From Escherichia coli (GTDB taxonomy: Bacteria; Pseudomonadota; Gammaproteobacteria; Enterobacterales; Enterobacteriaceae), in NCBI GenBank assembly GCA_009729775.1, contig GCA_009729775.1_4081.1: a DNA stretch of 64,000 bases, one strand, 5' to 3'. This document shows positions 42,838 to 64,000 of this stretch, piece by piece; within the stretch, counting starts at the first letter, position 1; each line of letters begins with the position of its first letter. Both the position numbers and the translations under genes were made by a program. The notes beneath the pieces are model-generated. The model was not told the DNA's origin, made no database searches, and worked only from the letters and a program-made list of their open reading frames with translations.

Positions 42838-43193
42838 ACCATACCTCTCTTATGATGCAAACATTCTTGCATAATGTGTTGTATTTTTCGTAACAGAAAC
42901 ACATCCAGTTCATTAAAAACAGTACTGTACTGGAACATCTCTTCTTCCCCGTACTCAGTTAAATCATCAATTTCATCTCTAGAAACAGCTACAATATTAA
43001 AACCACGTGTACTACAATAACCCTTAGTAAGATAATATATGTACTTGTACTCTCCGTTGATATCTAAGAGATCTTGTGTGATACAGAAGCTTTTGGGTGA
43101 CAGTTTATCATCAGGAACCATATGCCTTGCTTGTACATAGCAACGGATACCATCACCTATACTATATGTAATAACTTCAAATTCAATCTTCAT
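42816..43193 (-). CDS. family A paralog
   Basis: motif GEEEMFQYSTVF; start trimmed to MKIEFEV. Confidence 0.55.
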   Translation of the reverse strand: MKIEFEVITYSIGDGIRCYVQARHMVPDDKLSPKSFCITQDLLDINGEYKYIYYLTKGYCSTRGFNIVAVSRDEIDDLTEYGEEEMFQYSTVFNELDVFLLRKIQHIMQECLHHKRGMVCDVNLN

Positions 43194-43545
43194 AGGTGAA
43201 TATAATCCTTTTATATTGCTCAGGTGCAGTACTGAAACGTTTGATTGGATAATTATCAAAGATTCTTTTCATTTCTTTCTGGATTAAACATAAGAAATCA
43301 AAGTTACAATCGTACTTATTATCCCATACTAAACTTTCTTGGAATAACTCATCCTCTTGCATTAGTGTAGTGTCAATTACATCTTCACGGACATAGCTAT
43401 ATACTTCATAGCTCTTGAAGCCATCTTCTGATAATTCTAATTCATATGCAGCCATATCAAACATATCATCATGGTTTGTCTTCAAAGATATTAAACAAGT
43501 AACTAATTTTTTAGTTGTATAGTATGTAATACTTAATGTGTTCAT
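43183..43545 (-). CDS. family A paralog
   Basis: motif QEDELFQESLVWD. Confidence 0.6.
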   Translation of the reverse strand: MNTLSITYYTTKKLVTCLISLKTNHDDMFDMAAYELELSEDGFKSYEVYSYVREDVIDTTLMQEDELFQESLVWDNKYDCNFDFLCLIQKEMKRIFDNYPIKRFSTAPEQYKRIIFTYED

Positions 43546-43550
43546 TTGTT

Positions 43551-44153
43551 TTATACCTCAGTATATAGCTTACAATAGCTTTCATCGAAATTACAAACAC
43601 TTCTCAAGTACTGACACAGGTCATTGAAAATATTTACATTTGATATATATACATTATCAAATTCTGTTCGTTGAAAGAATGTATGCATAGAATTTGTAAT
43701 ATATCGCATTGCATCTTCACGTCCCATAGTTATATCATTTGTGAACATTGCATCTTCATCAGTACTGATGTGTTCTATTTTAAATGATTTCATAAATGGA
43801 ATACTCTTTCCTAGGGCATAACCATCACCATATGATGCTTCTACTGCACCTTTAGAATAAAGGAATTGATATAAGTCCGAATCACGATTATAAAAAGTAC
43901 GACATACGGAGGAACATAATTTATTATCTATATGAAATAAAAATCTTTTAGCATTTTTGTCTAATACTATTCGCAATGCATCACTCTCTAGAAATATATC
44001 ACCATCAAGCATAAATGAGAACTGTACTAATGCTTTTTCTAAATCCGCTCGTTTGTGATAAATCATTTCCTGCATATATATAATATCATTTGCTAATTTC
44101 TTAAAAAACAAATGCACATCTGCACTACAACATTTATTTGCATTTATTGACAT
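43551..44153 (-). CDS. family A-like paralog (divergent)
   Basis: weak motif DEDAMFTNDIT. Confidence 0.4.
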   Translation of the reverse strand: MSINANKCCSADVHLFFKKLANDIIYMQEMIYHKRADLEKALVQFSFMLDGDIFLESDALRIVLDKNAKRFLFHIDNKLCSSVCRTFYNRDSDLYQFLYSKGAVEASYGDGYALGKSIPFMKSFKIEHISTDEDAMFTNDITMGREDAMRYITNSMHTFFQRTEFDNVYISNVNIFNDLCQYLRSVCNFDESYCKLYTEV

Positions 44154-46660: not shown

Positions 46661-47109
46661 TCTATACCTTCTGGATCTTTACGAAGTTCTTCGAAATCCA
46701 AATAAAATCGAGGACAGTTAACACTCTTTAAGTACCACATAATAACTAATGCTTCAAGTACTTCATCATCGTAAACAGTACTGTTTTGGAAGTAATACTC
46801 TTCACTATCCCACGGACCTTCCAGTACTTCATAATTCAAAATTAATGGTTTTTTGCGATTAATAAAACGAATGCTACCATTTTCAACATAACTAATAAAT
46901 TCTGCATCTCTATTGTATTCAGAAAACGATATAGGACTATTGGAATTCAACCCAAGAATAACCCTTACACCAACGGAGTTATTATACATTTCATCCTTGT
47001 AGTAGTTGCCGTTCTCGGCTTTGTACACTTCTTTGAACTTTCCTGCCTTTATATCGTCAAAGTATCCATGTAGTTCTTTTGCTTTTTCAAGAGCACTTTG
47101 TAATGACAT
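46657..47109 (-). CDS. family A paralog (subgroup MSLQSALEKAK)
   Basis: motif VLEGPWDSEEYYFQNSTVYDDEVL...WYLKS...FYLDFEE. Confidence 0.65.
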   Translation of the reverse strand: MSLQSALEKAKELHGYFDDIKAGKFKEVYKAENGNYYKDEMYNNSVGVRVILGLNSNSPISFSEYNRDAEFISYVENGSIRFINRKKPLILNYEVLEGPWDSEEYYFQNSTVYDDEVLEALVIMWYLKSVNCPRFYLDFEELRKDPEGIE

Positions 47110-48486: not shown

Positions 48487-48978
48487 TCAACCCCTGTTAA
48501 TACCGTTATCTACAGTTTTCTTTACGTATTTGTAATCGAAATAGAAGTTCCCAGAACCAATACTTTTAAAGTACCACATAATTATAATAACATCAAGTAC
48601 TTCATTATCATATACAGTACTTTGTTGGAAGTAATACTCTTCACTATCCCACGGACCTTCCAGTACTTCACTCGGAATTATAATGTCATTGGAATCGCTG
48701 TCAGTACTGTTGATGGTATCTGTATCATTAATATAGACCATGTACTCATTATGCATATTAATGAAGCATTCATAATCATTAGGGTCGGTATCTAGTATGC
48801 ACGTTTCTGTATCCAGTACGCACGTTTCTGTATCTGAGCAGTCATTATAAAGGAGGTTATCCGGTACATAATATTGAGTACTTGTGTCTTTGAAAACACC
48901 GTAAACTGAACCTTCTTTTGCCATATTCATGTACTCATGAATCTTCTTTGCTTTTTCCAATGAACTCTGTAATGTCAT
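48487..48978 (-). CDS. family A paralog (subgroup MTLQSSLEKAK)
   Basis: motif SEEYYFQQSTVYDNEVL...WYFKS. Confidence 0.65.
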   Translation of the reverse strand: MTLQSSLEKAKKIHEYMNMAKEGSVYGVFKDTSTQYYVPDNLLYNDCSDTETCVLDTETCILDTDPNDYECFINMHNEYMVYINDTDTINSTDSDSNDIIIPSEVLEGPWDSEEYYFQQSTVYDNEVLDVIIIMWYFKSIGSGNFYFDYKYVKKTVDNGINRG

Positions 48979-48987
48979 TTTATAATC

Positions 48988-49347
48988 TCATATATTGAAA
49001 TAATAATTATTCGTTCTTGATGGGGATGGATTAAATACGTTTTCTTTTTCAAATCTCTTCATTTCATTTTGCAAAGAAACCATTTCTTCAAATGTACAGG
49101 AGTACTTATTCTTATCAAACACTAATGCAGCCTGAAATAGTTCACCATCGTCCAGTACTGTATAATCTATAAGACTCTCAGATTCATAGTCATAGTCGTC
49201 ATGTGATACATGAATAAATTTAAAACAAGAATCTTTGTAATGCATATATAAACTCAACTCATGTTCCGAGTCGCCCTTAATAAGATTACAGCACAAGTCC
49301 CATCCTTTAGGTAACTTATAATAGTACATAGAATAATCATATGTCAT
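48988..49347 (-). CDS. family A paralog (subgroup FQxxLVFDKK)
   Basis: motif DDGELFQAALVFDKNKYSCTFEEM. Confidence 0.6.
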   Translation of the reverse strand: MTYDYSMYYYKLPKGWDLCCNLIKGDSEHELSLYMHYKDSCFKFIHVSHDDYDYESESLIDYTVLDDGELFQAALVFDKNKYSCTFEEMVSLQNEMKRFEKENVFNPSPSRTNNYYFNI

Positions 49348-49700
49348 TCTTGAATTCCTAAATTGAATTTGTATTCTTGATTAATACTTGCATTGGGTTT
49401 ATGCAAAGCAGCATACTCTTTCATTTCATTTTGTATTGCAATAACTTCTTCAAATGTACACAAGTACTTCTTATCAAATACTAATGATTCTTGGAATAGT
49501 TCTGCGGTATCCATTAATGTATAGTCCGGCATATCTTGGTGTGGATACTGTAATGAACTGTAATCAATGAATGTAAATTTACCCTGAGTGTAATGAATAT
49601 ACTCATTTGCACTGTGCATTAAATCACCTTTGTTTAAATTACAAAAGTACTGATAACTGTGCTTGAAAGTATGTACTGATATTAAAAAATCAAATTCCAT
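49344..49700 (-). CDS. family A paralog (subgroup FQxxLVFDKK)
   Basis: motif DTAELFQESLVFDKKYLCTFEEV; N-terminal 27 codons duplicated at 50150..50231. Confidence 0.6.
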   Translation of the reverse strand: MEFDFLISVHTFKHSYQYFCNLNKGDLMHSANEYIHYTQGKFTFIDYSSLQYPHQDMPDYTLMDTAELFQESLVFDKKYLCTFEEVIAIQNEMKEYAALHKPNASINQEYKFNLGIQE

Positions 49701-50071
49701 CAGTACTCAACCTCTACATAAATAGATTCAGGAAACTTAGTCATATAATCTTCTGGATAGTTCTGCATTACTTTGATCATTTCTGCCTGTGTAGCACGGA
49801 CGTATTCAATTGGTGCTCCTGGTAAATTCCAGACAGTACTTTCCTGAAAGAATTCCTCTTCTGACAGTACTGTCAGATTTACAAAATCATTACGGTAATT
49901 TTTTGAATCATCATATGTGAAGATTTTAAAAGACCCATTTTCATATAGTACAAGAACAAAATGGGAGAATTTTTGTAATGCACCACCAAGGCTTTCCACG
50001 ACCGCATGATTCAGTGTACAGATGACCTCTTTTTTCCTCATACCGAATTGAATTCTAATTTCTTTTTTCAT
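49700..50071 (-). CDS. family A paralog
   Basis: motif SEEEFFQESTVWN. Confidence 0.6.
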   Translation of the reverse strand: MKKEIRIQFGMRKKEVICTLNHAVVESLGGALQKFSHFVLVLYENGSFKIFTYDDSKNYRNDFVNLTVLSEEEFFQESTVWNLPGAPIEYVRATQAEMIKVMQNYPEDYMTKFPESIYVEVEY

Positions 50072-50229
50072 AAAATCTCCTTCAGATTAGTACTGAATTT
50101 GTACAGAATATTAGAACTGTATACAGCCTCTGTATCTGTATCCATAATCAAATCACCTTTGTTTAAATTACAAAAGTACTGATAACTGTGCTTAAAAGAA
50201 TGTACTGATATTAAAAAATCAAATTCCAT
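50068..50229 (-). pseudogene. chimeric N-terminal fragment of a family A gene (53-codon ORF)
   Basis: First about 27 codons (MEFDFLISVHSFKHSYQYFCNLNKGDL) near-identical to the start of 49344..49700, then unrelated sequence to an early stop; lies inside an 82-bp direct repeat. Confidence 0.45.
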
Positions 50230-50606
50230 CACTCTTCCCCTAGATTGAAATGATTACAAAAATCATCTTCACCAGTACTGCACCAGATGTCTATACATTC
50301 TCTGTGAATACATTTAATTCTACGCTGTAATTCAATCATCTCTTCTAATGTACAGATGTACTTCTTATCAAATACTAATGCCGCCTGAAACAGTGCAGCA
50401 TCATCAAGTACTGTATAGTCCAACATCTCGGTTGCTTTACCCCTAAACCCAGTACTAAAATCCATCAAATAAAAGTCAGCATTCCAGTACTTTAAAATCT
50501 TGTCCCTAGCGTAGTTTAAATCACCCTTGTATAAGTTAGAGTGCGTAACTAACTCACCAGTGTACATCCATGTCCTTGCACAAAATTCATTATATTTTAT
50601 TTCCAT
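50229..50606 (-). CDS. family A paralog (subgroup FQxxLVFDKK)
   Basis: motif DDAALFQAALVFDKKYICTLEEM; start trimmed to MEIKYNEF. Confidence 0.55.
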   Translation of the reverse strand: MEIKYNEFCARTWMYTGELVTHSNLYKGDLNYARDKILKYWNADFYLMDFSTGFRGKATEMLDYTVLDDAALFQAALVFDKKYICTLEEMIELQRRIKCIHRECIDIWCSTGEDDFCNHFNLGEE

Positions 50607-50801
50607 CTTAATCTCTACTATAATTAATAAGGTAAACTCCAATATAAGGAGAACGTTCGGCGGCGGGGTATTTTTTGTTTCAAGAAACATGAACTGTACT
50701 CTGAAAAACACAATATAAAACTTTATATTAAACATATACCTTAGCATGTTTTTCAGCGGAAATTTTTTTGACCCCCTGCGGCCTGTCAAAATGAAACGTC
50801 T

Positions 50802-51026
50802 CTATTTATTCAGCATAGAAAGCTTGATTTCTTCAATCCTTTTCATTGCACAAAGCCTTCGACTCGTCCTCTCGTATATATTCAATACTCGCTGTAATGC
50901 ATTATCTGTATTATCTGGAACTGCAATCTGAACCAAATATGTATCCTTCAAAATAGAATCCATCATGAATTCAAAACCTTTCACACTAAAGCAATATGCC
51001 ACTTCCGGCTCTTCAAACGTAATCAT
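50802..51026 (-). CDS. small hypothetical protein
   Basis: 74 aa ORF. Confidence 0.4.
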   Translation of the reverse strand: MITFEEPEVAYCFSVKGFEFMMDSILKDTYLVQIAVPDNTDNALQRVLNIYERTSRRLCAMKRIEEIKLSMLNK

Positions 51027-51243
51027 AATTCCAATCCCCTATTCCCTCTAACCTTCTAAGATATCTTGCGTAAATTATTTCGAAATATCTGTGCAACGAA
51101 ATTACGGATTGCTCATAATCATCATTCCTGTACATTGTGCATGTCAGAAAATCATTTAACCCAAAATCTAAACTGCACTTGAACTTCTCCTTTGCAATAT
51201 CACTATTACTTGCACTTTTCATAATAAACCCTTTGTACCGCAT
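51013..51243 (-). CDS. small hypothetical protein
   Basis: 76 aa ORF. Confidence 0.4.
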   Translation of the reverse strand: MRYKGFIMKSASNSDIAKEKFKCSLDFGLNDFLTCTMYRNDDYEQSVISLHRYFEIIYARYLRRLEGIGDWNYDYV

Positions 51244-51397
51244 TGGTGTACTGTGAACTCAGCACCACTAATAGGTAATCTATATTGTAAGCACGATTTC
51301 CTCGTTGACTAGCACGGCTGGAATAAAGAATATTATCCACATATGTATTGAACTGATCTTCAAATAACTCTTTCATCAGCATTATCCCATCACATAA

Positions 51398-51940
51398 TCA
51401 TACATTAACAACTTTATCGATGTAATCTTCTAACATATCAATATATCTGGTATTGGTTCTAACTAAAAGGTATGCAAATCCAGAAAACTCCTGTGTATAA
51501 TGCTTTACAGCGTACATACAACGAAGCTTATCATTGTCATACATTGTACTGTACTGAAACAAACTCTCGTCTGATAGCTCTAATAACGCTTGGGCTTCAC
51601 TTCTCGTGAACTTCATAGGGTCATGTACTGCATCACAAAAACAAACCTGTGTCTCGCTATTGAAACCCTGTGATAGATATATACCTTCACACTCTGAACG
51701 CACCGATACTGCATTATAACTATGTGTTGCCCCCATCATATCTGAACTCAAAACTAAAATCAACCCATTTTTATTTTTAATCAACAAATCTGACTTAAGG
51801 GATTTGATCTCCGTATGGGAAATATCACCAAATCTTCCTGGAACTTCAAACTTATCAACGTTGTATACAATCTTTTGTACTTGCTCTTTTAAACGCTTAA
51901 TTGCACTTCTGTCTTTTTCTAATGTATCTAATAAACTCAT
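51398..51940 (-). CDS. family A paralog
   Basis: motif SDESLFQYSTMYD; start trimmed to MSLLDTLEKD. Confidence 0.55.
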   Translation of the reverse strand: MSLLDTLEKDRSAIKRLKEQVQKIVYNVDKFEVPGRFGDISHTEIKSLKSDLLIKNKNGLILVLSSDMMGATHSYNAVSVRSECEGIYLSQGFNSETQVCFCDAVHDPMKFTRSEAQALLELSDESLFQYSTMYDNDKLRCMYAVKHYTQEFSGFAYLLVRTNTRYIDMLEDYIDKVVNV

Positions 51941-51950
51941 TGTACTTTCC

Positions 51951-52295
51951 TTACATATTTGTACCGAACAAAACGGAACTTTGAATGCCATTAATCGACA
52001 CTTCATGTACATATATATTTTGTCTGAATACCTGAAGCAATTGAACTAAACTTTGTTGCATAATAATATGCATATGTACATTATCAAAGGCCGTTTCGTA
52101 TTGGAATCGTGCAGCTTCATCTTCTATGAAATTCGGAACTTGGACTGGATTTTCAAAATTTGTCCTTGTACTGAACTGTACATCATTGTCCTGTACCTTA
52201 ATACCATATGAATTATCATTGTTATCAACTACATCAAATTCAATTAAACTACCATCTTTACTGACGTTTACTATATAAACCGAAAATCGACTCAT
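51951..52295 (-). CDS. family A-like paralog
   Basis: motif EDEAARFQYETAFD. Confidence 0.5.
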   Translation of the reverse strand: MSRFSVYIVNVSKDGSLIEFDVVDNNDNSYGIKVQDNDVQFSTRTNFENPVQVPNFIEDEAARFQYETAFDNVHMHIIMQQSLVQLLQVFRQNIYVHEVSINGIQSSVLFGTNM

Positions 52296-52807
52296 AAACC
52301 TATTTCCTCTAAATCTTTGACAAATGTATCATAATCCGATAATGACAAAAATATGTCTGTACTGATGTTTTGACGTAATGTATTAAACAAATTATGTACC
52401 TGTAATAAATCAGGTGCATAAATCAGGGATTGCTGGAAATACGATTCTTCTGTATCTAATATATCCCTGCACTCTATTTCACGAACTCGTTGGTATATTG
52501 AATTTAATAATACATTTTCATCTTTGAGCATTGGAAGGTATCGGATGTACATGTGCTCCATCATCTCATCCTGGATTGAACCCCTGAACTGCAACACGTA
52601 TTCAAAACACATCACTACATCTTGTAGGTAATTGGCACTGTAATTATTGCTGTAAACAATCTTATGACTTCTGAACTCATCATCATTTCTGAACCAATTG
52701 TCACCTACTTTGGTGTACTTATGACTAAGCTTCCCATCCTCCAACGCTCGAATGAACTTCATAATGTTAATTGCAAAATCATATGAATGATGCTTGTGTT
52801 GATGCAT
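52292..52807 (-). CDS. family A paralog
   Basis: motif TEESYFQQSLIY. Confidence 0.6.
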   Translation of the reverse strand: MHQHKHHSYDFAINIMKFIRALEDGKLSHKYTKVGDNWFRNDDEFRSHKIVYSNNYSANYLQDVVMCFEYVLQFRGSIQDEMMEHMYIRYLPMLKDENVLLNSIYQRVREIECRDILDTEESYFQQSLIYAPDLLQVHNLFNTLRQNISTDIFLSLSDYDTFVKDLEEIGL

Positions 52808-52815
52808 TTTTTACC

Positions 52816-53010
52816 TCAATTCTGTCCGAAAAAATAACCAAAATGTTTAAAGCAAGAAAGCATTACTATGTTCATCACTCTATCATCAAATTCATCTTGT
52901 GTTTCTGCACATAATGTTTCACAGATATTCAAATGTAATAATTCAAGCTGGAAACTGTCGGTGAACCAATCAAACTTACGGTATTTTTGTTTAACATCAA
53001 CTGTAAGCAT
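52816..53010 (-). CDS. small hypothetical protein
   Basis: 64 aa ORF filling the gap between neighbours. Confidence 0.4.
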   Translation of the reverse strand: MLTVDVKQKYRKFDWFTDSFQLELLHLNICETLCAETQDEFDDRVMNIVMLSCFKHFGYFFGQN

Positions 53011-53011
53011 A

Positions 53012-53635
53012 CTATATATCCAACCCTTTTACAACATCTACGAAATGTTCAAACACTTCTTTTGAAAAATAACCACCTTCACAAAAAAGCATACTAAACG
53101 GTGGCAGCATGTCCGATAACTCTTTAGCTAAATTGATTTCTGCTCTTAACTCTTGAACATCAATGATATCATGTACTAAAGATAATTGAAACATGAATGC
53201 ATCTACATCTTCATTCATTTCTGAATTGTAATATAACTCTTCAGGGAATTTGTCGGTTTCGTAATAATAAAAAACTTTATTGTTGAACACACCACTAATA
53301 GGAACATCATTTTCATCTTTCTTTGAAATGTTTGTTTCCCATGACTCTATATTATTAGGAACAAAAAAATCATAGGCTGACTTTGAACCCTGTACTGAAT
53401 CCAACTTTATTCCATAATATTCCGTATCCATGTATTTCTGCTGTAATGTAATACCACGTGTACTGACATTCACTTGGAATATATCATCTTTATCTGGAAC
53501 ACTAAATGGAATACATAACACTGAATTCTCAGGGTATTTGGCAATGAATGCATCCAGCACTTTATTAAGCACCGGAATGGCAATTTTACTGTACTGCATC
53601 AAATCATACATTTTAATTCTGGTCATATCATTCAC
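53012..53635 (-). CDS. family A paralog
   Basis: motif DVDAFMFQLSLVHD. Confidence 0.55.
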   Translation of the reverse strand: MNDMTRIKMYDLMQYSKIAIPVLNKVLDAFIAKYPENSVLCIPFSVPDKDDIFQVNVSTRGITLQQKYMDTEYYGIKLDSVQGSKSAYDFFVPNNIESWETNISKKDENDVPISGVFNNKVFYYYETDKFPEELYYNSEMNEDVDAFMFQLSLVHDIIDVQELRAEINLAKELSDMLPPFSMLFCEGGYFSKEVFEHFVDVVKGLDI

Positions 53636-54167
53636 CTGTGTATGTTTTCACCCTTAGCGATTCAAAATCCCATACATCACTGATTGTACCATTGTGCCTG
53701 TAATCATAATATTCTACTAATACATTATACAATAACTTCAACGATACAAATTCATGATTCCACGGAGCTTTATTCTCATGAACACATTTGGTGATATAAG
53801 GTATAATATATAAACTAAACAACACTAATGGTGAATGTATACATTGCATTTGAAAATATTCTTCTTCTTGCATACAATGTTCAGGAATAATTAGATCATA
53901 ATGTGTCTCAAATAAATGTAAACCTATTGTGGTTTTTTTCGTATCACATGCGTACCATATTGTACTATCCGAAATAAATGGAATGATACCATTATTGTTT
54001 GCAATGTACATCATATGGTAAGAGCGATTTGTCTTGTTAAATATCTCGATACTTTCGATATTACTACAAATCATGTATTCAAGGCAATCAATGATCTTAT
54101 CTTTAAATGTACCAATTTCATTGAATGACATTGCTTTCTGTACTTTTGATACTGTTGTACTGCTCAT
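53628..54167 (-). CDS. family A paralog
   Basis: motif QEEEYFQMQCIH. Confidence 0.55.
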   Translation of the reverse strand: MSSTTVSKVQKAMSFNEIGTFKDKIIDCLEYMICSNIESIEIFNKTNRSYHMMYIANNNGIIPFISDSTIWYACDTKKTTIGLHLFETHYDLIIPEHCMQEEEYFQMQCIHSPLVLFSLYIIPYITKCVHENKAPWNHEFVSLKLLYNVLVEYYDYRHNGTISDVWDFESLRVKTYTGE

Positions 54168-54706
54168 ATGTTATCCTTAAAAAAATCCAAATACTCTTCA
54201 TTGAAAGCATATGTATCATCTTTTTTGTTATGCACCACATAATCATAAAGAGCTATGAATGCAGGGATTATGATCTTACATGATTTATTATTGTATTTGT
54301 GGTACTCCAAATCAACGGTGTTCAATTTAGCAATAAGCATAGCAACAAAGATATCTTCATGGCGATGTACTGTACTGTACTGAAAATACTCATCCTCTCC
54401 AATATCTGGATGATATAACGGTATAACCAAATTATTACGAATTGACATCTTATATTTTTGTAATGCAGCTAAATGTATGAACCACAATCTATCTTCATTG
54501 AAATATGGAAAAATAATTTTGTCTGTGCTAATAAAAATTTCTTCATTTCGATTATTTGTCACAAGAGGTGCATACATTTTAATTTTTGCAGATCTAATAA
54601 TTAAATTAAAAATATAATGAATCTTATGAACTGCACTTGATGCATCTTCGTATGTACTTGGGATTATGAAACTCACTATATGTTCTCCTTTAAAATGATT
54701 ACACAT
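54164..54706 (-). CDS. family A paralog
   Basis: motif GEDEYFQYSTVH; start trimmed to MCNHFKG (uncertain). Confidence 0.5.
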   Translation of the reverse strand: MCNHFKGEHIVSFIIPSTYEDASSAVHKIHYIFNLIIRSAKIKMYAPLVTNNRNEEIFISTDKIIFPYFNEDRLWFIHLAALQKYKMSIRNNLVIPLYHPDIGEDEYFQYSTVHRHEDIFVAMLIAKLNTVDLEYHKYNNKSCKIIIPAFIALYDYVVHNKKDDTYAFNEEYLDFFKDNI

Positions 54707-54758
54707 GATAACAGCTTTGCACTTCTTTGTCAATACCAAAACGAAAAAAGCCCATATC

Positions 54759-55265
54759 TTACGATACAGGCGTGCTGGGAATGTTGATTTGGATTTCATT
54801 GTACAAATCATCAATATATAGACATGAAAAAAACACACTATCTTTTAATATATTGTTGTGATAAAGCATTTTAAATACTACATAAAAAAATAAATCAATA
54901 TCATCGTGGACTAAATTCTGCTGGAACCACCACTCGTCTGTTAAATCTTGTGCATTAAAATCATCAGGAACTTCAATGAACGACATATCACAATCTTCTT
55001 TGTACTCAAACCACATGTCGTCATTCGGATAACGTTCATGCTTCTCTGGGTAACAATTGCTGGGATTAAATGTTAAAATATTAAACCCCGTAGAGCAACG
55101 TTCTTTATTTAAAAATGTATTATTCCATACCTGATATTTTTCACCAACATCAAGCTCTTCTGTTACTGATTTTATTGCACATAATGTACTGTATATTGTT
55201 TCTATCTTGTGAACATATTTAAATGCAGCATCTAAGCTGAACTCTAAATCATACATGTACTGCAT
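54759..55265 (-). CDS. family A paralog
   Basis: motif TDEWWFQQNLVHDD. Confidence 0.55.
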   Translation of the reverse strand: MQYMYDLEFSLDAAFKYVHKIETIYSTLCAIKSVTEELDVGEKYQVWNNTFLNKERCSTGFNILTFNPSNCYPEKHERYPNDDMWFEYKEDCDMSFIEVPDDFNAQDLTDEWWFQQNLVHDDIDLFFYVVFKMLYHNNILKDSVFFSCLYIDDLYNEIQINIPSTPVS

Positions 55266-55585
55266 AAAATTACCTCAACTAAAGCAAGGACTGTATTGAA
55301 TTCCACTATACTTGTAATTCCTTGAAGGTACATGTACTTTGCTACTACATATTTCTGTACTAAATTATAATTTTTAAATTCCTCAAAATTGTAATTCAAA
55401 ATGAAATTTGTACTCAAAAATAACTTATGCATCTCTAATGCACTCTGATAATATTGGTACAACTCTCTGATATCAATACTTTGTAAATCACTTTGTTCAT
55501 ATGTATGATAAGGAATGGCTTCAATTTCAATACGATGAAACCATTCTCTTAACTTATTAATATCAAATGTATTATTCAGCTTCAT
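55244..55585 (-). CDS. hypothetical protein
   Basis: 113 aa ORF. Confidence 0.45.
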   Translation of the reverse strand: MKLNNTFDINKLREWFHRIEIEAIPYHTYEQSDLQSIDIRELYQYYQSALEMHKLFLSTNFILNYNFEEFKNYNLVQKYVVAKYMYLQGITSIVEFNTVLALVEVILCSTCMI

Positions 55586-56138
55586 AACTCAATATCTCCA
55601 TTAAACACTCATAAACACCATCAATCGCATAAGCACAAAAATTGAAATTAATTTTATGATTCTTGTGTAATGGACTATTGTGTACTGTACTAATAAGGAC
55701 ATTATAAAACAACAAACGCACTGGCACAAGCAATGAACCTTGGAAAAATTCTTCCTCTGATTTATATGTATTGTACTCTATTGTTTTGTTCGTTTCTGTA
55801 TCATATTTTACCATTACTAATGGGGAATTTTTATTATACCATGCGTACTCTAAATCATTCTTTCCAATAACAGCACCAGGTGCGAAATCCAAAAGACCAA
55901 TAACACTATGGGCATTTGGTGTATCAGGTGTATTGAATCGTTTATCAAAATGACTCGTGCACGCAATATATGTATTGTACTTCGATGGAATGATACCAAT
56001 ACATTTGTGGATGTGACGCTTGTAATCTTTCTGGGCATTATATAAGGCTGCAACAATACAAGCTAACTTTTGTCCCATAAGGATTGCATTAGCGTAGGTG
56101 TACTGAATTTCATTGCTGGTACGGTACTTCGAGGTCAT
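55572..56138 (-). CDS. family A paralog
   Basis: motif SEEEFFQGSLLV. Confidence 0.6.
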   Translation of the reverse strand: MTSKYRTSNEIQYTYANAILMGQKLACIVAALYNAQKDYKRHIHKCIGIIPSKYNTYIACTSHFDKRFNTPDTPNAHSVIGLLDFAPGAVIGKNDLEYAWYNKNSPLVMVKYDTETNKTIEYNTYKSEEEFFQGSLLVPVRLLFYNVLISTVHNSPLHKNHKINFNFCAYAIDGVYECLMEILSYEAE

Positions 56139-59992: not shown

Positions 59993-60182
59993 GTAAAGCT
60001 GTCAAATACTTCTGTACTGCTTGCTCTTGCTTATTTGTACCTAAAAGTATATACATCCATAATTCACTGTAATGTACATCTTGTGTATAAGGGTTGTTGT
60101 AACTTTTTGATAATATAGCATCAAATTCAGATGCATGAACCCTTGTGAACTTAAGCATATCTTGTTGTGTTATGATTCTCAT
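59961..60182 (-). CDS. family B paralog
   Basis: motif YILLGTNKQEQAVQKYLTAL. Confidence 0.6.
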   Translation of the reverse strand: MRIITQQDMLKFTRVHASEFDAILSKSYNNPYTQDVHYSELWMYILLGTNKQEQAVQKYLTALRDATANGVCV

Positions 60183-60394
60183 ATCTTTTCCTGTATAAGC
60201 TTCTTAAGAATCTCAATATATGAATTAACAGTTCTCTCTTGATGCTGTGTTCCTAAGAGTGTCAGTACTATCATATCTGAACGCAAAAGATTTTTTTCAA
60301 GTTCACTTATATCAGTTCTTGAATCAAGTGCCATATATTTGTGATTATTCTTCCTGAATAGTGCCAAGTACTCTTGATTTGATATTTCCTTCAT
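60179..60394 (-). CDS. family B paralog
   Basis: motif VLTLLGTQHQERTVNSYIEIL. Confidence 0.6.
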   Translation of the reverse strand: MKEISNQEYLALFRKNNHKYMALDSRTDISELEKNLLRSDMIVLTLLGTQHQERTVNSYIEILKKLIQEKI

Positions 60395-60618
60395 AGTCTA
60401 TCCTTGATGCCATTTAAAAGTGCTCTAATATGCTCATTGACAAAACGCTCTTGGGAATCTGTGTTTAGAGTGAGAAGCATTCTTAAATCTGAACTTTTTA
60501 TATGATATTCTAAATCATTCTTTGATTCTCGCATAAGTTTCTGAAAGGATGAGAAGTGTAATCCCATGAGTTCAATGTATTCTGCTGTTCCTAGGGGTTT
60601 GTGTATATGTTTGTGCAT
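60391..60618 (-). CDS. family B paralog
   Basis: motif LLTLNTDSQERFVNEHIRAL. Confidence 0.55.
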   Translation of the reverse strand: MHKHIHKPLGTAEYIELMGLHFSSFQKLMRESKNDLEYHIKSSDLRMLLTLNTDSQERFVNEHIRALLNGIKDRL

Positions 60619-60830
60619 TTTAATTGTATTACCCTTTTGAGTGTATTAATGTAATTATACACATTGGCTTCTTGATAGTTAGTTCCTAGAGTAGCTTGAA
60701 CGTAGATTTCATTTAACTTAATGATTTTATCAGTATCTGGTAGTTTTGATGTGTTAATGGCAAATAACTTCAAAAACAGTCCATTTATGATTGTTAGGTA
60801 TTCTTCTTCTGTAATGATTTTCATTTGCAT
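60591..60830 (-). CDS. family B paralog
   Basis: motif VQATLGTNYQEANVYNYINTL. Confidence 0.6.
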   Translation of the reverse strand: MQMKIITEEEYLTIINGLFLKLFAINTSKLPDTDKIIKLNEIYVQATLGTNYQEANVYNYINTLKRVIQLKCTNIYTNP

Positions 60831-61036
60831 TTTCTCAGTACTGATTCTTTAAGTTCATTGATGTAGTCCTCAATGTATTGCTCTTGTAAGTTAGTTCCAA
60901 CATATAAAAGAACTCTTAAATCGGCTCTAAGTACTTCTTTGTCATCATCATCTATATCAGACAGTGTTATGTTTAAGAATTTACTTGCATTCTCTATAAG
61001 TAATATTACTGAATCACCTTCGCTTAAAATTTTCAT
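60821..61036 (-). CDS. family B paralog
   Basis: motif LLYVGTNLQEQYIEDYINEL. Confidence 0.6.
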   Translation of the reverse strand: MKILSEGDSVILLIENASKFLNITLSDIDDDDKEVLRADLRVLLYVGTNLQEQYIEDYINELKESVLRKCK

Positions 61037-61244
61037 AATCTCTTTTTGCTTTCCTCGCCAAAAGGTACATATACGATTCTTCGTATTGTGCTTGATAGTT
61101 TGTGTTTAAGAGTCGAAACAACTTCTGTTCTGCTAGAACGAGTTGCTTATCTTCATAACAACGATAGCGTATCAACTTTTTGTATTCGATGTTGATTACA
61201 TCCATTACTATAAGCCCATGTTCATCATCTGTCAAGTGTTTCAT
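61014..61244 (-). CDS. family B paralog
   Basis: motif FRLLNTNYQAQYEESYMYLL. Confidence 0.55.
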   Translation of the reverse strand: MKHLTDDEHGLIVMDVINIEYKKLIRYRCYEDKQLVLAEQKLFRLLNTNYQAQYEESYMYLLARKAKRDYENFKRR

Positions 61245-61470
61245 GTATCTTTTCCTTAATAGTGATTTTAAGAGATTTAATTATACGTTCAACGTGATAC
61301 TCCTGTCTATCAGTTCCAAGAAGGTATGGTAGTGCTTGGAATAGAGCTTCCGCATTCTTTTCCTCTGGGGTTTGGTTTGGATCATTAGGAAGTTGATTGG
61401 CATATCTCTTGGCACTAACTAATCTCTCGACGTATTCATTATATGTTAAGTATATCATTTCATTTTGCAT
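61225..61470 (-). CDS. family B paralog
   Basis: motif LPYLLGTDRQEYHVERIIKSL; close paralog of the next gene. Confidence 0.6.
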   Translation of the reverse strand: MQNEMIYLTYNEYVERLVSAKRYANQLPNDPNQTPEEKNAEALFQALPYLLGTDRQEYHVERIIKSLKITIKEKIHETLDR

Positions 61471-61696
61471 TTACTTTTTCCTTAATAGTAATTTTAAGAT
61501 ATTTAATTATACGTTCAATGTGATACTCTTGCCTATCAGTTCCAAGAAGGTATGGTAATCTTTGGAATAAAACTTCTGCACTCCTTTCTGCTGGGGTTTG
61601 GTTTGTGTTGTGAGGAAGTTTATTTGTAAGTCTTTTGGATTTATCTAGTCTTTCTGTTAACTCATCATGTGTTAAGTATATCATTTCCTTTTGCAT
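61460..61696 (-). CDS. family B paralog
   Basis: motif LPYLLGTDRQEYHIERIIKYL. Confidence 0.6.
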   Translation of the reverse strand: MQKEMIYLTHDELTERLDKSKRLTNKLPHNTNQTPAERSAEVLFQRLPYLLGTDRQEYHIERIIKYLKITIKEKVNAK

Positions 61697-61923
61697 TTAA
61701 TGTTCCTTACGTAAATTGTCTGGATTAAACAATCAATCCACGTTTGAATATATTGGTTTTGATACTGTGTGCCTAAAAGACTCTGCATTTTAAACTCTGC
61801 TTCAAGTTCATATCTCTTTTCTATAGAAAAGCTTAAATGACCATATTCCCTATCGTATCTTCTATGAGCTTCGCCAAGTCTATCAAATCTTTCTGATAAT
61901 CTGATGTTATTAATTTTATTCAT
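61681..61923 (-). CDS. family B paralog
   Basis: motif MQSLLGTQYQNQYIQTWIDCL. Confidence 0.6.
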   Translation of the reverse strand: MNKINNIRLSERFDRLGEAHRRYDREYGHLSFSIEKRYELEAEFKMQSLLGTQYQNQYIQTWIDCLIQTIYVRNIKCKRK

Positions 61924-62210
61924 CGCTCAGTACACCTTAGTGGACGGGTCATTTGATAAAAGTACAGCTTACCTCTGATTTCCATTAGTAATTCATTTAA
62001 TACGCGTTCTACCTCTTGTTCTTGATAGTTCGTGCCTAACAATGCACCCATCTTTAACTCACGCATCATAATCATCTTCTTACTGTGTTGAATTTCTGGG
62101 TTGTGATAGATTGTATTACGTTTAAGAGTAATTTTTGCCATACGCTCGGTATATTCATCTTTACTTAAATTAATCATTTTCATGTTAATTACCCTTACAT
62201 TTATTTTCAA
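61920..62210 (-). CDS. family B paralog
   Basis: motif MGALLGTNYQEQEVERVLNEL. Confidence 0.6.
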   Translation of the reverse strand: MKINVRVINMKMINLSKDEYTERMAKITLKRNTIYHNPEIQHSKKMIMMRELKMGALLGTNYQEQEVERVLNELLMEIRGKLYFYQMTRPLRCTER

Positions 62211-62415
62211 TACTATTCATGAGTTCTATAAGATAGTTTTCTACCTTACCTTCCTGATAGTTAGTCCCTAGGAAGTTGCACAACACGGCTTCTATAATTT
62301 TGATTTTCCTGATATCCGACTTCAATCTTTTGTTATTGAATATTTGAATCCTTATATCTCTGGATGCATTTAAACGTTTTTGATAGTCATGGTAAGTTAA
62401 ATGAATCATTTTCAT
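62185..62415 (-). CDS. family B paralog
   Basis: motif LCNFLGTNYQEGKVENYLIEL. Confidence 0.6.
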   Translation of the reverse strand: MKMIHLTYHDYQKRLNASRDIRIQIFNNKRLKSDIRKIKIIEAVLCNFLGTNYQEGKVENYLIELMNSIENKCKGN

Positions 62416-62630
62416 TTACGTTTAACCTCTCGCTGGAGGGCATCAATTAACATTAGTACAGCATTCTCTTGATAGTTTGTTCCTAAGACTGAAAGCATCT
62501 TTATCTCATTTACTAAAATCAACTTCTTTGAGGGTTCAATAATGTGACTATCATAAACGGCCTTACGTGCTGGATAAGTTTTCGCCAGTATAACATAAAA
62601 TTCGTCTTTACTTAAATTAATCATTTGCAT
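62412..62630 (-). CDS. family B paralog
   Basis: motif LSVLGTNYQENAVLMLIDAL. Confidence 0.6.
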   Translation of the reverse strand: MQMINLSKDEFYVILAKTYPARKAVYDSHIIEPSKKLILVNEIKMLSVLGTNYQENAVLMLIDALQREVKRK

Positions 62631-62839
62631 TTACTTTTAACCTCTTTCTGTAGAGCGTCAATCCATAGATCTACATACATTTGTTGATAGTTTGTGTCTA
62701 TTAGTGCACCTACATAGAGTTCAGCTACCATTGCGTGCTTTATGTCAATAGGGATGCTCTTATCAGATTGAATCTTTCTCCTTCTGCTTCCACATGTTTT
62801 CAGGAGCCTGATGTATTCAAAACCTTGTAAATTTCTCAT
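62621..62839 (-). CDS. family B paralog
   Basis: motif GALIDTNYQQMYVDLWIDAL. Confidence 0.55.
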   Translation of the reverse strand: MRNLQGFEYIRLLKTCGSRRRKIQSDKSIPIDIKHAMVAELYVGALIDTNYQQMYVDLWIDALQKEVKSKCK

Positions 62840-63051
62840 ATTTTGGATACCACCTTGTTACGTAAGGAACTTAATAATACGTCAGTGTAGATGTTTTGAT
62901 AGTTTGTTCCTACGAATGCACCCAACTTCATTTCAGCTATTATAACACATTTGTCCTCTTGTGCAATAGACTTGTCTAAAGAAATACTAACAACTTTCCC
63001 TCTTATAGTTTGTAACCTCCAATGATACTGATACTCATTAAGGATTATCAT
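62836..63051 (-). CDS. family B paralog
   Basis: motif GAFVGTNYQNIYTDVLLSSL. Confidence 0.6.
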   Translation of the reverse strand: MIILNEYQYHWRLQTIRGKVVSISLDKSIAQEDKCVIIAEMKLGAFVGTNYQNIYTDVLLSSLRNKVVSKI

Positions 63052-63298
63052 TCTCTCGTCTCCAGATTTCGGTTCTCATGTGTTGGCAGTGTGCATCAAT
63101 ATATTGCTCTATCGATCTGGCGATTGCTGTTTTATCAGTGCCTGTCATCAGTACAAGCATCTCTGCCTCACTATGAATTAAACGCATGATATCATAGGGT
63201 AATATTTCAGATACTGTATCATAGTGTTTGTGTGTCAGTGTCTGCAATAGTTTACAATACATTTTGTGATTTAGTCTTTGTCGCATTGTTTCTTCCAT
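63038..63298 (-). CDS. family B-like paralog (divergent)
   Basis: motif LVLMTGTDKTAIARSIEQYIDA. Confidence 0.45.
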   Translation of the reverse strand: MEETMRQRLNHKMYCKLLQTLTHKHYDTVSEILPYDIMRLIHSEAEMLVLMTGTDKTAIARSIEQYIDAHCQHMRTEIWRRENDNP

Positions 63299-63543
63299 TC
63301 TCTTCTGGCTTGACGGGTTTTTTCTGATATTTCGTTTCTCAATGCAGAGATATATCGTAGAGTGAACAGTTCTTGATAGTTAGTCCCTATGAATTTATTA
63401 AGATATACATCAGCGTTGACGATATCAGCTTCACGGGAATTATAAAGTTTATTGTTCGTGCGAAGGGTGTTTAGAAGAGAGAAGAGGGCAGTCTGATACT
63501 CAGTGCTTGATAAAGTTTTCATATTTTTCCACAATTCGTTCAT
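63271..63543 (-). CDS. family B paralog
   Basis: motif NKFIGTNYQELFTLRYISAL. Confidence 0.6.
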   Translation of the reverse strand: MNELWKNMKTLSSTEYQTALFSLLNTLRTNNKLYNSREADIVNADVYLNKFIGTNYQELFTLRYISALRNEISEKTRQARREWKKQCDKD

Positions 63544-63757
63544 TTAGTTTTATCTGTATAAGATCCATTAGTTGTTCAAGATAATCGGTACAATATTTCT
63601 CTTGATATTGGGTTCCCACAAAGTACAGCAACCATAGCTCATGAACTTTAACTTTCATCTCGTTCCATGAAAGTGCATCGTCATCGTAGATTACTCTTGC
63701 TTCTGGGGTGAGCTTTCTAACTCTAATTGAATATTCATCGTCAGTTAAGTGTTTCAT
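63500..63757 (-). CDS. family B paralog
   Basis: motif LLYFVGTQYQEKYCTDYLEQL. Confidence 0.6.
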   Translation of the reverse strand: MKHLTDDEYSIRVRKLTPEARVIYDDDALSWNEMKVKVHELWLLYFVGTQYQEKYCTDYLEQLMDLIQIKLNERIVEKYENFIKH

Positions 63758-63972
63758 TTACATTTATCCCTTATTAGATTTGTGAGGGCAACTATGTGTG
63801 CAACAACATACTCTTCCTGAAAGTTCGTCCCCAGTACAGCCATCATGCGTATATCGGTGGTGTTTATCCTGTGTTCCCTTACACATAAACCTTCTTTGTG
63901 AGGAAGTGTAAAATATTTGTTTATTGCAGCAATGACAATTTTATTCTTCTCGGTGATACTTAAATGTTTCAT
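63754..63972 (-). CDS. family B paralog
   Basis: motif MAVLGTNFQEEYVVAHIVAL. Confidence 0.6.
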   Translation of the reverse strand: MKHLSITEKNKIVIAAINKYFTLPHKEGLCVREHRINTTDIRMMAVLGTNFQEEYVVAHIVALTNLIRDKCK

Positions 63973-64000
63973 AGTTTACTCCTGATATAATTCTGAAGTG

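Follow-up and report, generated by a model that had tools for sequence, protein, structure and literature searches.

A direct repeat and a chimeric reading frame in a jumbo phage paralog array as the probable scar of a single ectopic gene insertion

How did the start of one gene come to be present a second time, nearly unchanged, within an array of paralogs? The question is raised by a 64,000-nt stretch of Escherichia coli DNA (the window; NCBI GenBank assembly GCA_009729775.1, contig GCA_009729775.1_4081.1) which, judging from its sequence, represents an Asteriusvirus jumbo coliphage of the G17/Sharanji type; the locus discussed here shares 99.5-99.9% identity with G17, phAPEC6, SHEFM2K, and Sharanji, all of them Escherichia jumbo phages, and 94% with 121Q. 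All genes of the locus lie on the minus strand, in the order U, a short open reading frame (ORF), X, A, and a further A-like gene (49347-48988), and every gene boundary is a stop/start overlap, TGATG or ATGA. An 82-nt direct repeat forms the start of A and, in its second copy, the start of the short ORF. We compared the locus with its relatives and established the chimeric origin of this ORF, both joints, the empty site, the donor context, a subsequent deletion, and one horizontal gain. In all probability, the repeat and the small ORF are the scar of a single ectopic insertion that brought X and the 3' end of a different type of gene (the A4_364 type, named after its member in phage A4) into the 5' end of A.

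Alignment of the two copies placed the repeat at 49621-49702 and 50150-50231, with an offset of 529 bp and two mismatches (49665, G/A, and 49670, T/A). These are the coordinates given in an earlier note made from the letters of the window alone, whose count of three mismatches was recovered only when the repeat was taken as 85 nt (extended by 3 nt to 49618/50147, 96% identity, third mismatch at 49620). The same note had described the second copy as the start of a 53-codon ORF (50068..50229) in which about 27 paralog-like residues are followed by divergence, and this description held as well. With exact runs of 44 and 32 nt, the repeat is the longest near-exact repeat of the 64 kb. Exact repeats grew no longer than 15-18 nt when the window was simulated 20 times with a first-order Markov model, so a chance origin is excluded. 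The presence of AGTACT within the repeat, also remarked upon in the note, was confirmed (one per copy, at 49646 and 50175) and is unremarkable, as the window holds one such site per 344 bp.

The structural states of the locus were then called by base-by-base alignment of relatives, 13 genomes being checked for the empty site. In the short form, found in all 13 (E9.1, PBECO4, SD-15_S21, JP4, SP27, EC.P1, Ecwhy_1, WPEC3, CMSTMSU, fEgEco12, ph0011, UE-S1, and vB_Ec-M-J), U is followed directly by A, there is one 82-nt copy, and exactly 529 bp are lacking; several further genomes were judged short from alignment coverage. The window-type long form was found in G17, phAPEC6, SHEFM2K, Sharanji, CRJP21, BF17, ECO103 4-12-1, EC22.5-2, slurp01, and Turkey3. 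A still longer form, in which the short ORF has 63 additional bp and 74 codons (PBI_121Q_366), occurs in 121Q and in an ENA metagenome contig (L025). The insertion is common to 11 sequenced phages, 121Q included, and to this contig, and the presence/absence variation with exact breakpoints that the earlier note had suggested looking for among related phages was observed.

The short ORF consists of two parts of different origin. Its residues 1-27 are those of gene A, save for T11S, after which the sequence changes, and its last 26 codons are the 3' end of another gene, of the A4_364 type (about 195 aa), fused in frame. The unique segment between the repeat copies, 49703-50149, was found in just one other kind of context, that of a 364-type gene followed by X. 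In phage A4, the full-length 192-aa A4_364 is followed by X (A4_365) and then by a different gene, A4_366. The 364-X-366 order was also found in four more assemblies, namely the Logan run assemblies L024 and L026, the 358-kb contig GCA_012813795.2 (L027), and the 4.4-kb Logan contig L028, the upstream gene being 192-198 aa long. The last 47 residues of A4_364 (...FQQDL-IMDVDSAATYSSNVLCKEFQNSKILELLYIADCNILYKFCTHLKEIL) are matched by the chimera tail of 121Q (...NKGDL-IMDTDTEVVYSSNVLCKEFQNSKMLELLCIADCNILYKFSTNLKEIL), and the window's tail matches the same end apart from 21 deleted codons. Between the ectopic X and the native X of A4-type genomes, identity is 93-98% (93.5-98%), and the X of L028 is 98% identical to that of the window. 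Wherever the 364-X pair was found in its native context, it was located about 5 kb farther down the array, past the phrog_9317 genes. A word-based protein search for X returned five clusters, all at least 94% identical, and supplied four of the native contexts; a scan of IMG/VR for further contexts of X gave 121Q itself and one 38% relative and nothing else, and a metagenome scan for X gave no match. The chimera is thus codons 1-27 of A joined to a 364-type 3' end, X having traveled with the end of its former upstream neighbor.

The short ORF is annotated in relatives as G17_00559, PSLUR01_00268, and PBI_121Q_366. The earlier note had held that an independent gene conserved in relatives would speak against a rearrangement; the ORF is open in every insertion-bearing relative but, never being present without X, does not qualify as such a gene. 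It was rejected as a member of phrog_15629, since the profile of that family matched it at positions 1-39 only (E = 1.2e-9) of about 121 and the E-L-F-Q-x-S-L-V core motif was not found in its 53 residues. Its start overlaps the stop of U (TGATG) and its stop overlaps the start of X (ATGA), and as it lies between these overlapping signals it is probably a translated by-product.

Each of the two joints could be placed within a short stretch of identity. At junction 1, gene A reads GGT GAT TT(A/G) ATG, the 364-type gene CAG GAT TTG ATT ATG, and the chimera GGT GAT TTG ATT ATG; the switch therefore lies inside GATTTGAT, and several alleles of gene A have the G that gives 8/8 identity. At junction 2, the native end of X reads GAGTAC TGATGGA TTTAG, the short-form U/A boundary GAAGAG TGATGGA ATTTG, and the window GAGTAC TGATGGA ATTTG. 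As the window thus has the X end before and the A start after the heptamer, the switch lies inside TGATGGA, which is found again at the U/chimera boundary (50225-50231). Junction 1 falls just past the FQ motif in the 364-type gene and about 40 codons ahead of that motif in A. Because the placement of the motif differs between the two genes, the exchange joined non-homologous positions, codon 27 of A being linked to about codon 146 of a 192- to 198-aa gene of another family. One AGTACT is located at junction 2 (49702-49707); as a joint-specific signal it was dropped, its density in the window making this single copy non-significant.

These features suggest the following course of events. The ancestor would have had the U-A arrangement found today in PBECO4, E9.1, SD-15_S21, and others. 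A growing 3' end would have copied U and the first 82 nt of A, switched at GATTTGAT, after codon 27 of A, to the 364-type gene of another genome, copied on to the end of X, and switched back at TGATGGA to the start codon of A. The stretch so copied would comprise the last 142 nt or so of an A4_364-type gene of about 195 aa and the complete X with its own ribosome-binding site, taken from an A4-type version of the same paralog array. With the point of return 82 nt upstream of the point of departure, A would have its first 82 nt duplicated and would itself be left intact. The event may have consisted of a replicating or invading 3' end switching template twice in a mixed infection or, equivalently, of two microhomology-mediated break-join events; the enzymology and the mixed-infection setting we infer. 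For T4-like phages, it has been proposed that additions arise when 3' ends invade illegitimately (PMC2993671), and RecET is able to join homologies of 5-13 bp (PMC2327257).

All chimeras (window, 121Q, and L025) differ from the native 364 tails (A4, L024, L027, and L028) by a cluster of eight substitutions in the 25 nt that follow junction 1. Possible causes of the cluster are a donor allele absent from the sample, a relaxation of constraint, and error-prone synthesis at the joint; as a sign of template switching it is only suggestive. Further down the tail, the imperfect 11-nt direct repeats ACAGAAyATTA are both still present in 121Q and in the native gene, and the window lineage has lost one of them together with the interval, in a later in-frame deletion of 63 bp by which the chimera was shortened in that lineage.

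Of the 364-type gene, the chimera retains the end alone, and from this follows the direction of the exchange, from the 364-X context to the chimera. The arrays of A4 and the window are colinear (A4_350 corresponds to A and U, A4_354-357 to 48978-47126, and A4_359-361 to 45592-44706), so that the window's own counterparts of the 364-X pair can be named. The gene at 43551-44153 is 23% identical to the 364 type over 191 residues, and the gene at 43183-43545, a member of phrog_13866, is 28% identical to X. Since the ectopic X is 93.5-98% identical to the A4-type X as against 28% to its own counterpart, the cassette came from an A4-type allele of the pair, which would most simply have been acquired during a mixed infection. 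Of the 529 bp, 447 originated at another position of the array and in another phage lineage. Genomes of the 121Q and G17 types have the same junctions, so the insertion was a single event.

As to its age, X and the tail are 96-100% identical among the long forms, and in the same genomes the A body is 85-100% and U 85-99% identical; all the more divergent lineages (ph0011, UE-S1, EcMJ, and CMSTMSU) are short. The cassette is therefore younger than the allelic diversity that surrounds it. The near-identity of the repeat copies provides no basis for calling the event recent, as the earlier note had done: 121Q shares the insertion, yet its A body is just 85% identical to that of the window, and the two mismatches cannot serve as a clock because the same bases are standing alleles in single-copy genomes. 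The 82-nt segment is indeed polymorphic in such genomes, with the same haplotypes as the repeat copies. That of the window's copy 1 is the sole copy in JP4, SP27, and WPEC3; that of copy 2 is the sole copy in PBECO4, SD-15_S21, and E9.1 and also copy 1 of 121Q; a third is the sole copy in EC.P1, Ecwhy_1, CMSTMSU, fEgEco12, and EcMJ and also copy 2 of Turkey3. Overall, the segment is 94-100% conserved, and the rest of A is 85-93% conserved in diverged alleles.

The subsequent spread of the cassette was clearest in Turkey3. The flanks of this phage are those of fEgEco12 (A body 274/274, downstream gene 356/356, U 99.5%) and are only 81-90% identical to the window, yet its copy 1, X, and tail match the window at 100%. 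Both exchange points, at 49620-49665 and 50150-50183, fall inside the repeat, and the alignment indicates that Turkey3 gained the cassette horizontally via homologous recombination within the repeats. A minimum of about 30 bp has been reported for efficient RecA- and Red-mediated recombination (PMC2327257); the later use of the repeat in Turkey3 fits this value, since the 44-nt exact block exceeds it. CRJP21 is likewise a recombinant, with copy 2 and U of the 121Q type and with the tail, X, copy 1, and A of the window type. Alleles of X are common to native and ectopic sites, the indel variant AGCCTTGG being found in the window and L028 and the variant TGGGTGG in 121Q, L025, L024, and L027. 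After the insertion, the 82-nt copies served as homology by which the cassette moved into other genomes. Recombination between them has probably also caused its loss. Any given short form, for example SD-15_S21, which has flanks 99-100% identical to the window and lacks the cassette, may be either primary or the product of such a secondary loss.

Some observations weigh against a single insertion into A. Neither an intermediate nor the exact donor is present among the sampled genomes, and the eight-substitution cluster separates the chimeras from all native tails. Template switching and break-and-join are not distinguishable from the sequence. Rampant short-tract recombination blurs the trees, and the direction of change is secure only for Turkey3. 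Copy 2 of 121Q, CRJP21, and L025 contains a diverged patch of about 20 nt, ACGGTCAAGGGTGCACCTCAGTACC, by which five residues are changed (L004 2811-2892, L008 2751-2832, and L025 about 2810); no other occurrence of it was found at up to five mismatches in the window or the compared loci, and it could mean that copy 2 descends from an older, separate A-type gene. This last point favors a reading in which the long form is ancestral, the chimera being what remains of a complete A-type paralog fused by deletion to a downstream 364-type gene and the short forms being secondary deletions between the 82-nt copies. An old paralog might carry such a patch, the phrog_15629 profile extends to residue 39 of the chimera, slightly past the repeat, direct repeats with a 44-nt exact block are a good substrate for deletion (PMC2327257), and SD-15_S21 lacks the cassette between nearly identical flanks. 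We nevertheless consider this order of events unlikely, since it requires a 364-X pair between two A-type genes and the pair lies about 5 kb down the array in all native contexts found; moreover, the cassette is far less diverse than its flanks, the divergent lineages are all short, and the change in Turkey3 was a gain, not a loss.

Plain unequal crossing-over between family-A paralogs, the ORF tail being meaningless out-of-register sequence, would explain why the first 82 nt duplicate the start of A, and the flanking U and A do both belong to phrog_15629. From end to end, however, the tail is homologous to the 3' terminus of another kind of gene, and the intervening X, a member of another family, is 93-98% identical to a gene located elsewhere in the array of other phages. 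As a crossover within the array cannot supply the 364 tail and X, we regard it as refuted and leave the reading only a very slight probability. The unequal or illegitimate recombination between paralogs proposed in the earlier note is thus retained insofar as the chimera arose by illegitimate recombination and is abandoned as a crossover between family-A paralogs, the tail being of the 364 type and X being cargo. A tandem partial duplication was rejected on the ground that not all the DNA between the repeats comes from a local array segment. The possibility of an assembly or sequencing artefact has in its favor only the general risk that repeats pose to assemblers and retains next to no probability, since the same structure recurs in 11 independently sequenced phages from different groups and in the metagenome contig. 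Selection for the small ORF, as a working gene or a translated bridge, would be compatible with the insertion and deserves little credence. The ORF is uninterrupted in each of the 11 long-form phages and in L025, the 63-bp deletion is in frame, so that the ORF still ends at the ATGA overlapping the start of X, and both of its ends are stop/start overlaps like those in the rest of the array. An in-frame outcome, however, has a one-in-three chance, and as evidence of constraint it is weak; X has its own Shine-Dalgarno sequence (AAGGAG at 50077-50082, 6 nt upstream of its ATG and inside the 364-type remnant), so that coupling is not needed; the first 27 residues would, by the structural model described below, give only two beta strands of a six-stranded domain; the version in the window lacks 21 codons that 121Q has kept; and the substitutions are too few for a ratio of nonsynonymous to synonymous rates (dN/dS).

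It would be a further step, and an improbable one, to regard the repeat-flanked cassette as self-propagating. In that case, a 529-bp circle (one repeat copy, the 364 tail, and X) would be excised and re-enter single-copy genomes by one Campbell-style crossover, and such events, perhaps stimulated by the palindrome (C)AGTACT(G), would be a general way in which the array of about 45 genes expands and is reshuffled. The exchange points of Turkey3 map to the same 33-45 nt of the repeat, a result compatible with a circle and equally so with an ordinary double crossover.

We then asked which known systems the insertion resembles. In the model of Hendrix, Juhala, and Pedulla, mosaic joints of tailed phages are made by illegitimate recombination. 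Like such joints, the locus shows a novel joint at non-homologous positions with few shared bases, one joint at a gene boundary, and a whole gene gained, with presence and absence among relatives; non-homologous positions, identities of 8 and 7 nt, an empty site, and a donor context together characterize it as an illegitimate microhomology joint. Unlike in most mosaic joints, both joints, the empty site, the donor context, and the later decay are all readable here, and the insertion duplicated 82 nt of its target, which is unusual among the joints described. By the time a mosaic joint is noticed, the event usually lies far back, and donor, target, and joint are beyond reconstruction; at this locus each step is legible, and the spread of the new gene to another lineage by crossovers within about 45 nt is still visible. 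The locus is an instance of the mosaic joints long proposed for tailed phages, unusually complete and not surprising, and it reveals no new kind of element or function. The illegitimate-recombination model is summarized in PMC2327257 and, for T4-like phages, in PMC2993671, and the Asteriusvirus papers on Sharanji and CBB contain no discussion of this array or of the rearrangement. Since long-form and short-form phages are both in culture, the locus is well suited as a natural test case in which the illegitimate and short-homology recombination of jumbo phages could be measured, in an array that is being remodeled gene by gene.

Other parallels hold in part. Fork stalling and template switching (FoSTeS) and microhomology-mediated break-induced replication (MMBIR) are replication-based switches of template at microhomology, described for human and bacterial copy number changes. 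The locus shares with their products two switches at microhomologies of 7-8 nt, a remote insert, a short duplication, and substitutions clustered at a joint; the resemblance is one of outcome only, since break-and-join could give the same product here. Morons are extra genes inserted between phage genes, with a promoter and a terminator of their own. Here, too, one small accessory gene was added within an operon-like array, but X belongs to the same superfamily as its new neighbors, and the insertion took place inside a gene and not between genes. A consensus scan of 48800-51400, which phage-specific promoters would escape, found 14 promoter-like sites where 13.7 were expected by chance, and within the cassette it detected no terminator. 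A direct repeat of the target flanks the inserted DNA as it does after transposition. Target-site duplications of transposable elements are typically 2-14 nt long, in contrast to the 82 nt found here, and one "end" of the cassette is an arbitrary point inside the donor gene. A transposon or insertion sequence was rejected, as neither X nor the chimera had a transposase match and no inverted repeat was found at the cassette ends, and homing-endonuclease mobility was rejected, as X, A, U, and the chimera contain no nuclease domain and the model of X had no nuclease-like fold match. According to an idea on lambdoid phages cited in PMC2327257, modules are exchanged through short conserved flanks or "linkers." The 82-nt copies behave similarly, being 94-100% conserved next to gene bodies of 80-90% and containing the exchanges of Turkey3 and CRJP21; unlike a lambdoid linker, they are not an old boundary element but the coding start of A, duplicated by the insertion itself.

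Table 1. Positions of the genes, joints, and repeats of the locus in the window
Feature	Position	Strand	Remarks
Gene U	50606-50229	-	125 aa, phrog_15629; upstream neighbor; directly abuts gene A in all short-form genomes
Repeat copy 2	50150..50231	-	5' part of chimeric ORF; haplotype 2, the single-copy allele of PBECO4, SD-15_S21, and E9.1
Chimeric ORF	50068..50229	-	53 codons and stop; 54 if counted from GTG at 50232
Junction 1	50147..50154	-	8-nt microhomology GATTTGAT (sense), common to G-allele gene A and 364-type gene
364-type gene 3' remnant	50068..50149	-	alignment with A4, L024, L027, and L028
Substitution cluster	50120-50146	sense strand	GATACAGATACAGAGG versus GATGTGGATTCAGCAG; rest of tail differs at few scattered sites
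63-bp in-frame deletion site	50103..50113	-	deletion between imperfect 11-nt direct repeats ACAGAAyATTA
Gene X	49700..50071	-	372 nt, 123 aa, phrog_13866; complete cargo gene
Junction 2	49696..49702	-	7-nt microhomology TGATGGA, the stop/start overlap at the gene boundary
Repeat copy 1	49621..49702	-	first 80 nt of gene A and 2 nt of the overlapping stop codon of X; haplotype 1
Gene A	49344..49700	-	118 aa, phrog_15629; target gene, intact via the 82-nt duplication
Further A-like gene	49347-48988	-	phrog_15629
Syntenic 364/X counterparts	43183..44153	-	43551-44153 (200 aa), then 43183-43545 (120 aa)

The products of the locus matched only families without functional assignment. X gave a profile match to phrog_13866 (E = 2e-41, residues 2-118 on positions 1-112 of 115), a distant relative of phrog_15629, to which A, U, and the gene at 48988 belong. 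Pfam, NCBIfam, and PADLOC gave no match for X, A, the 364-type gene, or the chimera, no Pfam domain was found in U, the PHROGs families of the locus genes are all of "unknown function," and a profile search of PDB sequences was negative. An AlphaFold model of X, built from 103 family members, had a predicted local distance difference test score (pLDDT) of 83 and a predicted template modeling score (pTM) of 0.78 and comprised five N-terminal beta strands followed by a helix bearing the EEFFQES motif, a further two helices, and one last strand. Neither structural nor sequence comparison brought up an informative relative. By alignment with this model, the A-derived part of the chimera would supply only the first two strands. 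The array as a whole consists of about 45 tandem minus-strand genes of 100-215 aa, occupying about 30.7-59.7 kb of the window, which share an E-E-x-(F/Y)-F-Q-x-S-(L/T)-V motif and fall into many PHROG families without an assigned function, among them 15629, 13866, 9317, 12674, 28680, and 33775. A profile of its short members found 142 cluster representatives in 1.84 billion proteins, all of them small.

The AGTACT palindrome is frequent across the window: it occurs 186 times, whereas base composition predicts 21. ORFs contain 168 of the copies, spread over all three codon frames, compared with 41 +/- 6 when synonymous codons are shuffled. Extension to CAGTACTG is common (41 copies), and GTACTG and CAGTAC are the most over-represented hexamers. 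The palindrome is absent from 52000-55999 and occurs four times in 60000-64000. Its sites are no better conserved than the average hexamer (79% versus 76% across 20 relatives).

A few further observations concern the assemblies and the rest of the array. Contig L027 (AATHYQ020000001.1, 357,761 bp), which carries the A4-type 364-X-366 array, is filed as Escherichia coli, matches an Asteriusvirus genome in size, and is probably a phage genome inside a bacterial assembly. In UE-S1, one coding sequence of 729 nt (UES1_321; L020 1945-2673) is annotated over genes A and U. The longest exact repeat of the window, 46 nt (46786-46831 and 48625-48670), joins the GPWDSEEYYFQ region of two phrog_9317 paralogs that are otherwise about 78% identical and may be a gene conversion tract; a shorter exact block is found at an offset of 1403 (47524 and 48927). 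Mosaicism extends to single genes: two genes of the array, 48487-48978 and 51398-51940, exist in two allele classes with only about 52% and about 66% DNA identity, next to neighbors of 90-100% in the same genomes (comparison with L005, L014-L019, and L021). Finally, the 163-aa gene is replaced by two smaller ORFs in Turkey3, WPEC3, fEgEco12, ph0011, and EcMJ.

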